Source of the DNA: an uncultured virus (IMG/VR IMGVR_UViG_3300035150_000049)
Lineage: Duplodnaviria; Heunggongvirae; Uroviricota; Caudoviricetes
Strand: one strand, 5' to 3'
Virus record (IMG/VR): IMGVR_UViG_3300035150_000049
Length of the DNA: 20,000 bases
The notes below the pieces were generated by a model. That model was not told the origin of the DNA and did not search any database. It saw nothing but the letters and a program-made list of their open reading frames with translations. Shown piece by piece: positions 1,049 to 17,892 of this stretch. The translations under genes were made by a program, and so were the position numbers. Position 1 is the stretch's first letter. Every line of letters begins with the position of its first letter.

Positions 1049-1134
1049 ACCGACAGCCCGCCGCGCAAATCGGCGTACTCGAAGCTGAGGGGCGACAATC
1101 GGTAGATGACAAAACGCGACTGACCGCACAGTCG
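1049..1134 (+). ncRNA. candidate structured RNA (3-way junction plus hairpin)
   Basis: ACCGA/TCGGT and GCCC/GGGC enclose GCCG-CGCAAAT-CGGC and CTC-GAAGCT-GAG, followed by a CGACTG/CAGTCG hairpin (1117-1134). Confidence 0.45.
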
Positions 1135-1170: not shown

Positions 1171-1428
1171 ATGCCAGTTGATAAACGATACGGCGGGAGC
1201 AAATGGGACAAATTTATTCATCCCTACGAAGACAAAGACGAGGTTACGCACTATGCAGTAGCACAACGGAATGAAACAACCGGGCAGTATATCGCGCCGC
1301 TAGACCGCGCGACCCAACAACTAACGGGGTGTTCATCCGAGTTCGCAACCAATGCAGCCGGTATCGGCGGTGGATTATCACTAGATGAAGCGCGTCGGCG
1401 CGCACGCTACTTGTATCGTGGAATCTAG
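1171..1428 (+). CDS. hypothetical protein
   Basis: An AGGAG RBS precedes ATG 1171 (MPVDKRYGG...), so this start is preferred over 1138. Confidence 0.75.
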   Translation: MPVDKRYGGSKWDKFIHPYEDKDEVTHYAVAQRNETTGQYIAPLDRATQQLTGCSSEFATNAAGIGGGLSLDEARRRARYLYRGI

Positions 1429-1638
1429 TCGAAACGCCCGGCCTAAGCCGGGCGCATGACCCGTAAGCTCACCGCATCCACGCGGCGCGGGTTGGGTAAC
1501 GCAGAGTGTGAGCGACACATCACCCGGCGCGGCGTTCCGGCTAAGGCTAGGACGTTCGGGCGGAAGGGATGGCGAGCCTGTCGGTTGACGGCGAGGGGAC
1601 CTGGGTGGGTGTAACCCCAGGCGGGTGATGAGACAGAT
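1423..1638 (+). ncRNA. hammerhead-like RNA with large insertion and non-canonical core
   Basis: ATCT-A-GTC (1423-1430) pairs with GACAGAT (1632-1638). GAAAC, a 7-bp stem III hairpin and GCA lie at the 5' side; GTGATGA lies at 1625-1631; there are several internal helices. Confidence 0.55.
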
Positions 1639-4363: not shown

Positions 4364-4435
4364 GCCGGCGTAGCTCAAGAGGTAGAGCAACTGGCTTCCA
4401 ACCAGAAAACGCGGGTTCGAGTCCCGCCGCCGGCT
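4364..4435 (+). tRNA. tRNA-Gly (anticodon TCC)
   Basis: Acceptor GCCGGCG/CGCCGGC, D-arm GCTC/GAGC, anticodon loop CT-TCC-AA, T-arm GCGGG-TTCGAGT-CCCGC, discriminator T. CCA is not encoded, and there is an A-A mismatch at the top of the anticodon stem. Confidence 0.92.
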
Positions 4436-6370: not shown

Positions 6371-6417
6371 GCCCCCGGCCTCGGTAAGGCTCGCGCAGGG
6401 CTGAGGTCGGGGGCTTT
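6371..6417 (+). terminator. long hairpin, possible terminator
   Basis: GCCCCCGGCCTCGG...CTGAGGTCGGGGGC followed by TTT. Confidence 0.5.
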
Positions 6418-6433: not shown

Positions 6434-6946
6434 ATGTATGAGTTGGCTCTATATGCCGGTGCTGCCGGCGGACTGCTCGCCTCGAAATGGCTCCTCGGCT
6501 GGCGTACCGTCTGCTATGTCGAGTACGACGCCTTCTGTATCGAGGTGCTCAAGGCCCGCATCAGAGACGGACTGCTCGACAACGCGCCCATCTGGGACGA
6601 CGCCCGCACCTTCGACGGGCGACCCTGGCGTGGATGCGTGGATATCGTCACTGCGGGCTTCCCGTGCCAACCATTCAGCGCCGCCGGCAGACAACTTGCC
6701 GGTGACGACCCGCGCAATATGTGGCCGGACACCGTTCGCATACTTAGAGAAGTCCGGCCCCGATGGGCCTTTCTGGAGAACGTCCCAACACTGCTTGCCG
6801 GGTCTCACGGTTACTTTGGCCGCGTTCAACAAGACCTGGCCGAGATCGGGTATGCAGCACGGTGGGATTGCATACCGGCTTCCGCCGTCGGCGCGGATCA
6901 CCGCCGCGACCGGCTCTGGATCGTGGTACACCCCACTGGCGGGTGA
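6434..6946 (+). CDS. C5-cytosine DNA methyltransferase, catalytic (alpha) part, motifs I-VIII
   Basis: LYAGAAGG (I), GFPCQPFS (IV), LENV (VI), HRRDRLWIV (VIII), then a stop codon. Confidence 0.9.
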   Translation: MYELALYAGAAGGLLASKWLLGWRTVCYVEYDAFCIEVLKARIRDGLLDNAPIWDDARTFDGRPWRGCVDIVTAGFPCQPFSAAGRQLAGDDPRNMWPDTVRILREVRPRWAFLENVPTLLAGSHGYFGRVQQDLAEIGYAARWDCIPASAVGADHRRDRLWIVVHPTGG

Positions 6947-7427
6947 TGCGACGCTGAGCAGTCCGTTGTCGCGCCAGGCGCGCTGGCCCACACCCATCGC
7001 GCGAGACGCCGACAAGATGTGTACGAATTCTCTAAGTCGTTTATTGAGGACAGGTAGCAAACGAGGTCGGCTATATGCAACACCGACGGCGGCGGATGCA
7101 ATCGGTACGACCGGCGGCGGTCAGCGCCGCAGTCTCCGTAATGACGCCGGCGGACAGATAAATCCCGACTGGGAAGAGTGGCTCATGGGTTGGCCGGTTG
7201 GTTGGACCGCCTTGAAGCCGCTGCCGAAAAGCGCGATTGACGATTGGTTAACAGGGCTGAGCGATGAAACATGGTGGAATATCGACCCGCATACTACGGG
7301 AGAAATCAACCGGACAGCGAGAACCGCCGACGTTCCCGACCGTAGAGAGCGTGTTCGCGTCATTGGACAAGGGCAAGTGCCAGCGTGCGCGGCGCGTGCG
7401 TGGCAGGTGCTTACAGATGTTATTTAA
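6438..7427 (+). CDS. C5 methyltransferase second (beta) part, TRD plus motifs IX-X, in overlapping +1 frame
   Basis: TPxAxD repeats (WYTPLAGD, WPTPIARD, YATPTAAD), INPDWEEWLMGWPVGWT (IX) and RVIGQGQVPACAARAW (X). The true start is uncertain. Confidence 0.8.
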   Translation: MSWLYMPVLPADCSPRNGSSAGVPSAMSSTTPSVSRCSRPASETDCSTTRPSGTTPAPSTGDPGVDAWISSLRASRANHSAPPADNLPVTTRAICGRTPFAYLEKSGPDGPFWRTSQHCLPGLTVTLAAFNKTWPRSGMQHGGIAYRLPPSARITAATGSGSWYTPLAGDATLSSPLSRQARWPTPIARDADKMCTNSLSRLLRTGSKRGRLYATPTAADAIGTTGGGQRRSLRNDAGGQINPDWEEWLMGWPVGWTALKPLPKSAIDDWLTGLSDETWWNIDPHTTGEINRTARTADVPDRRERVRVIGQGQVPACAARAWQVLTDVI

Positions 7428-7538
7428 CCCAACAAGAAATGCTATTGCGAGAATTCAACCTGTAATTGTCCACCGTGCCCGGTCTTGTCCCGCTGCTCGC
7501 GCAGGGCGGAGGTTGGGGGCTTTCTCAAGGAAAAGGAC

Positions 7539-15516: not shown

Positions 15517-15907
15517 GCAACGCCAACATTTCCGCCGCTCTGCCGGCGCATACTGCATCAAGATCATTCACGACTACGCCATGAACGCGGCGCAGAACGC
15601 CGAAGTCGCTCGCCGCTACAACTCCCCCGGCGCGCCCGCCTGGGCGCGCATCGCCGCATTCTACGAAGTCCGTGCCGCCGACAAAATCGCGGCGACCGAG
15701 GGTGACACGGAACCAACGCGCGCCATCCTGCACTATTCGGCGGGTTTCTGCGCACTCAAGGCCGGTGATGTTGCGACGGCGACTCGGATGATGGAGCGTG
15801 GCCGTGAGACTGTGAGGCACGGACACCCATCACAGCGGCTTGATGAGCTTGAGTCGGCGCTGGAAGCGGAGCAGATTTTGTATCCTGACGGTTTATTTTT
15901 GAGGTAA
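15506..15907 (+). CDS. hypothetical helical-repeat (TPR-like) protein
   Basis: EPTRAILHYSAGFCALKAGDVATATRMMERG; overlaps the upstream stop. Confidence 0.65.
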   Translation: MNAEQRQHFRRSAGAYCIKIIHDYAMNAAQNAEVARRYNSPGAPAWARIAAFYEVRAADKIAATEGDTEPTRAILHYSAGFCALKAGDVATATRMMERGRETVRHGHPSQRLDELESALEAEQILYPDGLFLR

Positions 15908-15914
15908 ATGAAGA

Positions 15915-16238
15915 ATGAGCAACAACACTCCCCCACTCGCGCGCTTGATCGAGCGCGCCAACGCCGAAATCACAGCGCTGAGCCAGGGCAAGAAGACTTG
16001 GCGCACCTGCATTCCGGCACAGCCGAACGACTCCGACGTGGTGATCGGCGACGCGGTGATTGCACTCAAGGCGCGCGCCGAAGCGCTTGAGACGGCACTA
16101 GCGGCGTTGCTTGAGCGCACGCCATACACCGAATATGATTTTTGTGGATGCGCCTATTGCGGCTGCGATTATGACGCACCGCACGAAGAAGGCTGCGCGT
16201 GGGCACAGGCGCGCAAGTTATTAGAGGTGAAAGAATGA
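15915..16238 (+). CDS. hypothetical protein with C-terminal Cys/His motif
   Basis: CAYCG...HEEGCAW; ATGA overlap downstream. Confidence 0.75.
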   Translation: MSNNTPPLARLIERANAEITALSQGKKTWRTCIPAQPNDSDVVIGDAVIALKARAEALETALAALLERTPYTEYDFCGCAYCGCDYDAPHEEGCAWAQARKLLEVKE

Positions 16239-16579
16239 GCAAAAACCAATACAATCCCGACCGCGTATCACGTCCTTCAGAATCGTTTTGTGAGGCACGA
16301 GACGACTTTGGGGACGATCATTTTATACCAGTTGGCTTTGCTATAAATCGATCCCGACAATATGAAAATTTGATAGAGGCCCGCGTTGAGGAACTGGAAG
16401 CCGAAAATGCCGAACTACGCGCGGCGATAGCGGCGTTCGTAGATGTATTTAAGGTTGAGTCCGGTTTCCACGAAGGTCATTTTCAGCTATCAGTACGGCC
16501 AAATGTTATGACGGGCTTTCGTGGCTCTCGCGGCGAAGCGCTCAAGCGCTTGATTGATCTATCTAAGGTGGAGAAATGA
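16235..16579 (+). CDS. hypothetical protein
   Basis: GAGGTG RBS before ATG 16235 (MSKNQYNPD...); coiled coil RVEELEAENAELRAA. Confidence 0.7.
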   Translation: MSKNQYNPDRVSRPSESFCEARDDFGDDHFIPVGFAINRSRQYENLIEARVEELEAENAELRAAIAAFVDVFKVESGFHEGHFQLSVRPNVMTGFRGSRGEALKRLIDLSKVEK

Positions 16580-16580
16580 A
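16531..16580 (+). repeat. direct repeat A, copy 1 (50 bp)
   Basis: 49/50 identical to 17270-17319. Confidence 0.95.
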
Positions 16581-16620
16581 AATTTATTTCTATGGGGGGA
16601 AGAAAAAGAATGAGCAAAGA
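16575..16620 (+). repeat. direct repeat B, copy 1 (46 bp)
   Basis: 44/46 identical to 17579-17624. Confidence 0.93.
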
Positions 16621-16821
16621 GCATATATAGAAAGATTAGAACGGGCACTGCGCATTGTTGGTAAGCGTACCGAATACCCGACACCGGCACCATTTTTTCG
16701 TGACTATACCGGGCAATGGTGGCAACTGACACCATTCTCTTACGGGCAGTTAACAGGCAACTGGTCTGAAATTCAGCGTGTAGTAAAAGAAGCGCTAGCG
16801 GAATCGCAAAGGAAGAACTAG
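16576..16821 (+). CDS. hypothetical protein
   Basis: GGTGGAG RBS and ATGA overlap. Confidence 0.65.
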   Translation: MKIYFYGGKKKNEQRAYIERLERALRIVGKRTEYPTPAPFFRDYTGQWWQLTPFSYGQLTGNWSEIQRVVKEALAESQRKN

Positions 16822-16822
16822 A

Positions 16823-17179
16823 ATGATTGCACCAAATTACTTTTCAATGAATTATCATCCCGAAATGAACCCTCCCCGTTTTCAAGTATGGAATGCAAAA
16901 TTTGAGATAAACGCGATCGGCTTTGATTCACCTGATAACGAGTCTCGTAACGCGATATCAGTCACGGGATGGGTTGATGTACCCGACACTCAAAAATGGC
17001 ATATTCATATCATCACAGATGAAATACTGCCGTGCGCGCCACAAACAAGTTTATGGTTAAAGGTTCCGATTACGGAAGACAAATCATTGTCGGGCAAATT
17101 TGTAACATTGCGCACTGATATGCAGAATGATAGATATTATATTGATTATATGAGTTTTGGGGAAATTGAAATAGATTAA
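16823..17179 (+). CDS. hypothetical protein (AT-rich)
   Basis: AAGGA RBS; starts 1 nt after the upstream stop. Confidence 0.7.
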   Translation: MIAPNYFSMNYHPEMNPPRFQVWNAKFEINAIGFDSPDNESRNAISVTGWVDVPDTQKWHIHIITDEILPCAPQTSLWLKVPITEDKSLSGKFVTLRTDMQNDRYYIDYMSFGEIEID

Positions 17180-17269
17180 AGTCCCGATTATTCGAATAGG
17201 TGGCGCGGATAGCGTGGGTATAAGTTTCCCGCTACTTGGCGGTGGGTATGATGAAGAAAAAACACGCGA

Positions 17270-17319
17270 CGGCGAAGCGCTCAAGCGCTTGATTGATCTA
17301 TCTAGGGTGGAGAAATGAA
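17270..17319 (+). repeat. direct repeat A, copy 2
   Basis: CGGCGAAGCGCTCAAGCGCTTGATTGATCTATCTAGGGTGGAGAAATGAA. Confidence 0.95.
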
Positions 17320-17617
17320 CGACGAACTAACCGGACGCGAGCCTGCGCTCTCGCAAGACTCGAAATTAAGCGGCATGGAGCCGCGACTTAGTCAGACGCA
17401 AACGCGCGCGGAGTTTTTCTTGTGGCTTCTATACGAGCGCCAGCGCGGACACGAACCAATGGCAATGAGGTTTGACCAAGACAGAACGGTGGCATTTACA
17501 ATTAGTGTTCCGGCAAAATACGAAGTTGTCGCAAGAGAGTATATGGAAGAGAGCGCGAAAATTTTAGAAGCCTCGTTGAATGAAAATTTATTTCTATTGG
17601 GGGGAGAAAAAGAATGA
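17315..17617 (+). CDS. hypothetical protein
   Basis: GGTGGAG RBS; ATGA overlap downstream. Confidence 0.7.
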   Translation: MNDELTGREPALSQDSKLSGMEPRLSQTQTRAEFFLWLLYERQRGHEPMAMRFDQDRTVAFTISVPAKYEVVAREYMEESAKILEASLNENLFLLGGEKE

Positions 17618-17624
17618 GCAAAGA
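17579..17624 (+). repeat. direct repeat B, copy 2
   Basis: AATGAAAATTTATTTCTATTGGGGGGAGAAAAAGAATGAGCAAAGA. Confidence 0.93.
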
Positions 17625-17892
17625 ACTCGTAGCCTGCGGCGGATGTTCCGCTGAGATACCAGAGGAAGAAGCGGAAGTGTGCTGGTATTGTCACAGCTAC
17701 CTATGCTTCTCCTGCTGGCAGAGACTCGGTCACTGCGGCCACCCGGAGGCCGAAACCGAAAATCGCCTTGCACGAGAGGCGCGGGCGCGTGGCGAGCATT
17801 ACGATCCACACGACGCGGATTATCACACGGCGGTATTGCGGCAGCTACACGGAATACCAGATCACGAGCGCCGCCGGCAGAAATATAGTTAG
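17614..17892 (+). CDS. Zn-finger-like protein
   Basis: CGGC...CWYC...CFSC...HCGH. Confidence 0.75.
   Translation: MSKELVACGGCSAEIPEEEAEVCWYCHSYLCFSCWQRLGHCGHPEAETENRLAREARARGEHYDPHDADYHTAVLRQLHGIPDHERRRQKYS

Follow-up and report, generated by a model that had tools for sequence, protein, structure and literature searches.

A candidate minimal HDV-like ribozyme nested in a hammerhead-like frame between two phage genes

What RNA occupies the gap between the ORF at 1171-1428 and the 76-aa gene at 1659-1889? The window, by which we mean the whole 20,000-nucleotide stretch of DNA analysed (IMG/VR IMGVR_UViG_3300035150_000049), is part of a novel tailed-phage-like genome in which nearly all ORFs lack a Pfam or PHROG family. 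The first-pass annotation had described the gap as a hammerhead-like scaffold with a structured insert of ~160 nt. Judged from sequence, the first 56 nt of that insert (1458-1513) are likely to be a minimal, P4-less HDV-like self-cleaving ribozyme of the theta kind, standing in the stem I place of a probable hammerhead relic. The features discussed are as follows.

967-1030, + strand: HH1, a type II hammerhead that is intact; it scores 39.4 bits with Rfam RF02276 (gathering score 37)
1171-1428, + strand: ORF_W (ORF 1138/1171-1428 in the ORF list), which encodes 85 aa without a family and separates HH1 from the HDV-like ribozyme
1423-1435, + strand: 5′ part of the probable hammerhead relic; its stem II 5′ strand overlaps the TAG stop and is followed by GAAAC, with TAGTCGAAACGCCC matching the start of the hammerhead at locus L022
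1435-1454, + strand: hairpin of 8 pairs with loop CUAA, from folds; it would be both relic stem III and the 3′-terminal hairpin of the upstream product
1454-1456, + strand: GCA, read from the sequence, replacing the hammerhead GUH triplet (C at 16.1)
1458-1513, + strand: predicted minimal HDV-like (theta-type) ribozyme, from the segment parse, covariance model R1, the published layout and flank shuffles; predicted cut between U1457 and G1458
1518-1630, + strand: separate folded domain, with closing stem 1518-1526/1622-1630 and three hairpins (~1527-1560, 1574-1593 and 1599-1620)
1625-1638, + strand: 3′ part of the probable hammerhead relic; GUGAUGA, in which G replaces C3, followed by GACAGAU as the 3′ strand of stem II
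1659-1889, + strand: downstream gene, 76 aa, no family (ORF list; RBS AAGGGG at ~1645-1650)

A strong sigma-70-like promoter match (11/12) at 704-732 faces the + strand genes. HH1 begins at the TAG stop (967-969) of the first small gene, with CGAAACGCCC at 970-979, and would be expected to cut after GUC, between C990 and U991. In G001, a 61-kb IMG/VR genome that is the nearest found, the HH1 copy scores 41 bits against RF02276. Within 997-1004 and 1020-1025, HH1 shows two differences between the window and G001 or the G001-like contig X3 described below (A1001G and A1023G), both in the predicted loop I/3′ tail pseudoknot (CUAG with CUAG); each turns A-U into G-U, so that the pseudoknot is kept. 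Separately, divergent promoter-like sites with 11/12 matches each lie within 646-732 and separate a minus-strand 77-aa gene (389-622) from the plus-strand operon with both ribozymes, a layout that resembles a phage switch region.

HDV-like layout at 1458-1513

The site reads GACCCGT-AA-GCTCAC(C)-GCA-T-CC-ACGC-GGC-GCGGGTT-GG-GTAACG-CAGAG(T)-GTGAGC and follows the nested double-pseudoknot order P1-P2-P3-P3′-P1′-P1.1-L4-J4/2-P2′. P1 joins 1458-1464 to 1487-1493 with 7 of 7 pairs, starting from G1458-U1493 (-9.9 kcal/mol), P2 joins 1467-1472 to 1508-1513 (-8.1 kcal/mol), and P3 lies at 1474-1476 and 1484-1486. J1/2 is AA (1465-1466) and C1473 is unpaired. L3, UCCACGC (1477-1483), has the form U-CC-ACGY, and its C1478 and C1479 pair with G1494 and G1495, the GG that follows P1′, as P1.1. 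In place of P4 stands the six-base L4 GUAACG (1496-1501), after which J4/2, CAGAGU (1502-1507), opens with the putative catalytic C1502. The insert helix GCTCAC/GTGAGC noted earlier is P2 of this fold.

The first minimal HDV-like examples are reportedly those of Riccitelli et al. in 2014. Minimal HDV-like ribozymes without P4, in which J4/2 begins with the catalytic C, are described by Kienbeck et al. (2024; PMC10879173), and the commonest theta ribozyme in supplementary file 5 of that paper is P1-AA-P2-ACC-T-CC-ACGT-GGT-P1′-GG-GTAACG-CTAA-P2′. Whole-word counts in its 13,257-row theta table are 4128 for GTAACG, 1192 for ACGC, 44 for CAGA and 7 for CAGAG. With the theta ribozymes of Caudoviricetes phages as presented there, the window copy shares segment order and lengths, J1/2 AA, L3 U-CC-ACGC, P1.1 GG, L4 GUAACG, C as first base of J4/2, a 7-pair P1 starting with G, phage origin, sense orientation to the adjoining genes and a non-coding position. 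Unlike them, it belongs to a phage from a wetland metagenome and not from the gut, is not next to a tRNA, leaves one C unpaired between P2 and P3, has a J4/2 of 6 nt (these last two features are also found in contig L084, below), carries an A-G mismatch in P3 and is nested in a probable hammerhead relic. The tRNA-associated theta subgroup is marked by cleavage no more than 5 nt from a tRNA 3′ end; a simple hairpin lies upstream of the window copy, and the nearest tRNA, tRNA-Gly at 4364-4435, is the only one in the window. As it does not adjoin a tRNA, we group it with the ‘isolated’ hits of that study (PMC10879173).

Searching IMG/VR with the core pattern TCCACGYGG-N8-GGGTAACGC, which takes 17 bases from the window, returned 56 loci, all of which parse into the same fold (P1 with 7/7 pairs in 52 and 6/7 in 4; P2 complementary). 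RCC precedes the loop in 56/56, and 19 of the 56 lie directly after a tRNA, within 6 nt (ARAGORN). For a family alignment we took the 11 of 42 distinct relatives with matching segment lengths; all 187 of 187 cells are paired, 14/17 pairs change on both sides, and slid controls reach 35-43% pairing. A G-U first pair, as in the window, is the commonest state (9/11). The covariance model R1, built from these 11 with P1 and P3 only and with the window excluded, matched the window at 1458-1512 with 42.3 bits (E 1.7e-10), its only match there at E ≤ 10, a score that is partly circular because the members were fished with 17 window bases, so that only P1, P2, J1/2 and J4/2 count as independent. Across the whole of G001, R1 gave one match only (7.8 bits, E 2). 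When the flanks were shuffled with the core held fixed, G1 together with a 7/7 P1 and a P2 of at least 6 pairs arose in 20 of 200,000 trials.

A narrower pattern led to one metagenome contig, L084, which reads GCCCTGC-AA-GGGTGGC-C-GCC-TCCACGC-GGC-GCAGGGC-GG-GTAACG-CAGAGA-GCCACCC. It has the sub-layout of the window copy, with a single C left unpaired between P2 and P3 and with CAGAGN as a J4/2 of 6 nt, and its P1 and P2 are different in sequence yet complementary. Closer to the window itself, blastn at a distant setting found no close homologue of the copy in INPHARED phages, a viral scan with a window 18-mer and a metagenome scan with the conserved 3′ flank each gave 0 matches, 0 loci carried the 509-aa neighbour protein, and the 76-aa protein was found in G001 only; protein searches returned 2 matches each, the window's own protein included. 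Covariation for the window locus itself is absent because these searches found no close homologue of it. Taken on sequence grounds, homology of 1458-1513 to the minimal HDV-like ribozymes is nonetheless well supported, and we hold it with high confidence.

Activity is another matter, owing to P3. G1474-C1486 and C1475-G1485 pair, whereas A1476 and G1484 do not; the standard RCC/GGY has three pairs, and the third is C-G in 56/56 IMG/VR relatives and in L084. In the published theta table, the words ACC and GCC together account for 13,106 counts, and of the 45 places with GCA the six listed are all anticodons (PMC10879173). An alternative P3 register is possible, with CGC 1473-1475 pairing GCG 1482-1484, which departs from the family layout. 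The mismatch means that the window copy may be weak or dead, and we put the chance that it cleaves at present just short of even. A bleaker account would have both the hammerhead and the HDV-like copy dead, the latter a true homologue inactivated through P3, and the region an untranslated spacer or structured leader. It draws on the mismatch falling at a pair that is invariant in the 56 relatives and L084, on the high sensitivity of the 3-bp P3 of the HDV and CPEB3 ribozymes to single mutations (Roberts et al. 2023, PMC9901934), and on the remnants or complete lack of the module in G001 and in a further haplotype, X2, which make it dispensable in this lineage. Against this, all other conserved positions and the whole of P1 and P2 are intact, so that any decay would have to be very recent, and we consider this account rather unlikely.

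The Rfam models see the ribozyme only in part. Under permissive thresholds, cmscan placed two HDV families over 1456-1556, RF00094 (HDV_ribozyme; 24.5 bits, E 0.33) and RF02682 (HDV-F-prausnitzii; 21.1 bits, E 0.2), both far below their gathering scores of 50 and 44. P1, P3, L3 and GGGUAAC align to these models, which expect a P4 helix that the window RNA lacks; it is because of this expectation that the alignment sets the 3′ part on GGCUAA at 1539-1544. Read literally, that alignment describes a full-size ribozyme with P4 at ~1500-1539, catalytic C1541 within GGCUAA, and P2 formed by AGCU 1466-1469 with GGCU 1545-1548, and the CUAA with a 4-pair P2 partner directly behind it can indeed be read in the sequence. 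This reading is very improbable: the base of P4 has no convincing helix, its P2 leaves 3-4 unpaired bases before P3, GGCUAAGGCU belongs to a hairpin (1533-1554) kept in G001 through four pair-compatible changes without any 5′ half, and the P4-less parse fits the family exactly, including L4 GUAACG and a 6-pair P2. P4-less members are thus missed by the Rfam HDV models. Two other ideas were set aside: the ‘pinch’ peripheral-domain proposal, which in the source concerns a J1/2 insert (PMC4908430), has no counterpart in the window RNA, and ORFs across the region (52 aa on the + strand, 86 aa on the - strand) are at odds with G001, which lacks window 1429-1514, where the + strand ORF begins.

The hammerhead-like frame and the 1518-1630 domain

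All pairings and core deviations from which the first-pass annotation had built its hammerhead-like scaffold are in the sequence. ORF 1138/1171-1428 ends with TAG (1426-1428), and behind this stop comes TC-GAAAC-GCCC (1429-1439), as it does at HH1; CGAAACGCCC occurs at two sites only in the window, 970 and 1430. Stem II joins 1423-1430 (AUCUAGUC) to 1632-1638 (GACAGAU) with 7 pairs and a bulged A1427 (duplex -3.9 kcal/mol) and is part of the minimum-energy fold. The GAAA of the core is present at 1431-1434; the triplet is GCA (1454-1456) instead of NUH, and CUGANGA is replaced by GUGAUGA (GTGATGA at 1625-1631), whose G at position 3 cannot pair with G8. ACCCG (1459-1463) can form a stem I-like helix with CGGGT (1622-1626; -6.6 kcal/mol), and CATCACCCG (1518-1526) can pair with CGGGTGATG (1622-1630; -14.8 kcal/mol); the helices GCTCAC 1467-1472/GTGAGC 1508-1513 and CCTGGG 1599-1604/CCCAGG 1615-1620 are also there. 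Stems III (8 pairs) and II (7 pairs, one bulge) can form; stem I, with 5 pairs, is mutually exclusive with two other pairings and is weaker than either. Folding 1415-1650 to minimum energy gives helices like stems I and II and a hairpin like stem III; the 236-nt stretch as a whole is no more stable than shuffles (z = -0.46), and the Rfam hammerhead models, RF02276 included, gave no match over 1423-1638 even at E ≤ 10.

The flanks of the frame have exact words in common with real phage type II hammerheads. A pattern derived from HH1, containing CGAAACGCCC, returned 11 IMG/VR loci with type II hammerheads, which follow a stop codon immediately and leave ~20-30 nt to the next start; one of them, L022, reads TAG-TC-GAAAC-GCCC...GGGC-GTC-...-CTGATGA-GAC-AGG. 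The 14-mer TAGTCGAAACGCCC of the window 5′ flank was found in 1/11 of these loci (L022) and the 11-mer TGATGAGACAG of the 3′ flank in 3/11 (L018, L020 and L022, two being identical copies), matches of which only the extra bases count, since the loci were fished with a pattern containing CGAAACGCCC. The frame is laid out as in phage type II hammerheads: stem II contains the stop codon, and 27 nt separate the 3′ end of the frame from the ATG. Set against the type II hammerheads of phages and prophages (RF02276) as described in PMC3088659, the likeness extends from this beginning at the upstream stop codon and end ~27 nt before the next start to the L022/L018 flank words, GAAAC, a G+C-rich stem III hairpin, a GUC/GAC stem II and an intact copy (HH1) 460 nt upstream. 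The differences are GUGAUGA for CUGAUGA, GCA for GUH, stem I replaced by 165 nt, and the lack of a loop I/3′ tail pseudoknot and of an Rfam match.

In hammerheads, C3-G8 is a base pair that covaries to U-A, and 15.1/16.1 mutants lose at least ten-fold in activity (Perreault 2011, PMC3088659). Both deviations in the window hit pairs treated as essential in that paper, C3-G8 and A15.1-U16.1, and a decayed hammerhead therefore fits: with its core broken at C3 and at U16.1, the frame is probably a true remnant. Of the three options offered earlier, decay is the one that fits the frame, whereas a new catalytic hammerhead variant and a switch found no support. For an active variant with a 160-nt insert in stem I one can cite GAAAC, the stem III hairpin, UGAUGA and the 7-pair stem II in the right order, as well as flanks common to real hammerheads. 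We regard such a variant as extremely improbable, given a G at 3 unable to pair with G8 and a C at 16.1 that breaks A15.1-U16.1 (PMC3088659), the missing Rfam hammerhead match at E ≤ 10, the competition of stem I (-6.6 kcal/mol) with both P1 (-9.9) and the 1518-1526 closing stem (-14.8), and G001, which has GAUAA and no 5′ half.

The built-in alternative pairing that had been proposed to sequester the core exists, but it instead closes an independent domain (1518-1630) conserved in G001. The domain is closed by CAUCACCCG/CGGGUGAUG (-14.8 kcal/mol); its consensus fold with G001 has 35 pairs, with four one-sided changes, all compatible, and no two-sided ones, and it matched no Rfam family. It is dispensable, being absent from haplotype X2. 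A riboswitch-like device, in which the 3′ strand CGGGUGAUG would pick either 1459-1463 or 1518-1526 and so gate cleavage, accords with the mutual exclusivity of these pairings. It is nevertheless highly improbable, as the whole ribozyme has been made once transcription reaches 1513, more than 100 nt ahead of the competing strand, no ligand-binding family matched, and the 9-pair stem is kept in G001, where nothing remains to gate.

Cleavage context and predicted products

The earlier expectation of cleavage near 1456 was nearly right in position and mistaken in cause: the minimal HDV-like ribozyme is predicted to cut between U1457 and G1458, one base from the expected hammerhead site (after A1456). 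The 8-pair hairpin at 1435-1454 ends 3 nt before this cut, and the 45 nt upstream fold at -18.1 kcal/mol. A hairpin of -8 kcal/mol or lower ending at most 6 nt before the site was found in 19/29 distinct non-tRNA contexts and in 4/29 controls, the controls being windows 100 nt further upstream and some of the 29 contexts carrying T-loop-like words that may mark tRNAs missed by ARAGORN. The hairpin thus recurs in non-tRNA contexts, and the hairpin-then-ribozyme arrangement is common.

Among the relatives, L028, L034, L035, L037, L038, L046, L053, L070, L073 and L075 each carry a strong hairpin 0-4 nt before the cleavage site (~240-283 in ribozyme orientation). Hairpins before non-tRNA minimal HDV-like ribozymes are often trailed by U residues, and the arrangement looks like terminator-like 3′-end structures fused to a ribozyme.

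In the mechanism we propose, the ribozyme lies between two genes of an early phage operon, which would start at the promoter-like site 704-732. As the transcript emerges, P1, P3, P1.1 and P2 would form the nested double pseudoknot, and C1502 would act as general acid in cutting the chain between U1457 and G1458. The mRNA upstream of the cut would extend from a 5′-OH at U991, made by HH1, to a 2′,3′-cyclic phosphate at U1457 and would retain the terminal hairpin, while the downstream mRNA would begin with a 5′-OH and the ribozyme fold. Together with the HH1 cut between C990 and U991, this would release ORF_W as a 467-nt single-gene RNA. Such release matches the role proposed for phage hammerheads that flank single genes, namely the cutting of polycistronic transcripts into single-gene mRNAs (PMC3088659). 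The window copy stands where phage hammerheads are thought to make such cuts and, with HH1, brackets one small gene. For minimal HDV-like ribozymes not next to tRNAs, Kienbeck et al. (2024; PMC10879173) leave the role open; if cutting is real at this locus, ‘isolated’ members would be linked to mRNA processing, and the locus would exemplify the replacement, at a single site, of one class of self-cleaving RNA by another.

The HDV-like ribozyme at 1458-1513 belongs to a known family, and what is unusual is its nesting in a probable hammerhead relic. A viral scan for CGAAAC followed, after 25-55 nt, by an HDV-like core gave three matches, none of them such a composite: in one a tRNA T-loop precedes a theta ribozyme, the other two are coding stretches of identical sequence, and nothing in them resembles a hammerhead. 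The flanks of the 29 non-tRNA relatives held no composite, and we found no description of one in open-access papers and preprints.

Haplotypes of the locus and exchange of cassettes

G001 aligns to the window over HH1 and its spacer (968-1173, 77%) and over 1515-2157 (83%), and its counterpart of the 76-aa protein is 91% identical. Another ORF stands in place of 1174-1514, so that G001 is without the 5′ hammerhead part and without the ribozyme; it keeps 1515-1640 at ~90-92% identity, where GAUAA replaces GAUGA. Behind the position of window 1120, G001 carries 30 inserted nt whose best alignment is to window 1471-1497, with a score of 29 reached by 3/5000 shuffles and another window site at 27, a weak hint, at sequence level, of a decayed ribozyme copy. 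We also compared Logan contigs from three DNA runs of wetland origin; no RNA run was listed as carrying the stretch. The X1 contig has the sequence of the window and may be its source, X3 is G001-like, and in X2 window 1113 is connected to 1619 by 32 different letters, which makes it a third haplotype without ORF_W, ribozyme or domain. Among nine related loci carrying relatives of ORF_W, which itself matched nothing in Pfam or PHROG, a ribozyme-like stretch follows the gene in 0/9.

All three haplotypes have the 3′ relic GGGTGATRAGACAGATC, with GAUAA in G001, and two relatives without the 5′ half retain the 3′ half GGGTGATRAGACAG. The hammerhead frame is thus made up of a 3′ part resident in the lineage and a 5′ part observed in the window alone. 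Cassettes enter and leave at this gap, which is a seam between them. From this we sketch a succession in place, in which an HDV-like ribozyme within hammerhead stem I took over the intercistronic cut, moving the site by one base; the hammerhead core would then have been free to decay, the stem III hairpin would have been kept as the 3′ end of the upstream mRNA, and the gaps that hold ribozymes would be cassette-swap seams. This scenario is speculative, and we lean against it.

Several repeats were seen in the window. GCGAC-TGACCGCA (1119-1134) and GCGCA-TGACCCGTA (1453-1465) form an imperfect direct repeat bracketing the ORF_W cassette, and G001 has two tandem TGACCG starts at the first repeat site (window 1119-1134); these repeats may be recombination scars. 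Further downstream, a 29-nt direct repeat (93% identical; 6389-6417 and 7495-7523) brackets a methyltransferase-like gene at 6438-7427, which looks like an inserted cassette, as both of its flanks map to one overlapping G001 site (16120-16228). At 15892-17627, the gene starts AAAGAATGAGCAA are repeated in 4 copies, and near-identical intergenic repeats of 46-50 nt (96-98%) are spaced 739 and 1004 nt apart, which suggests tandem paralogous small genes.
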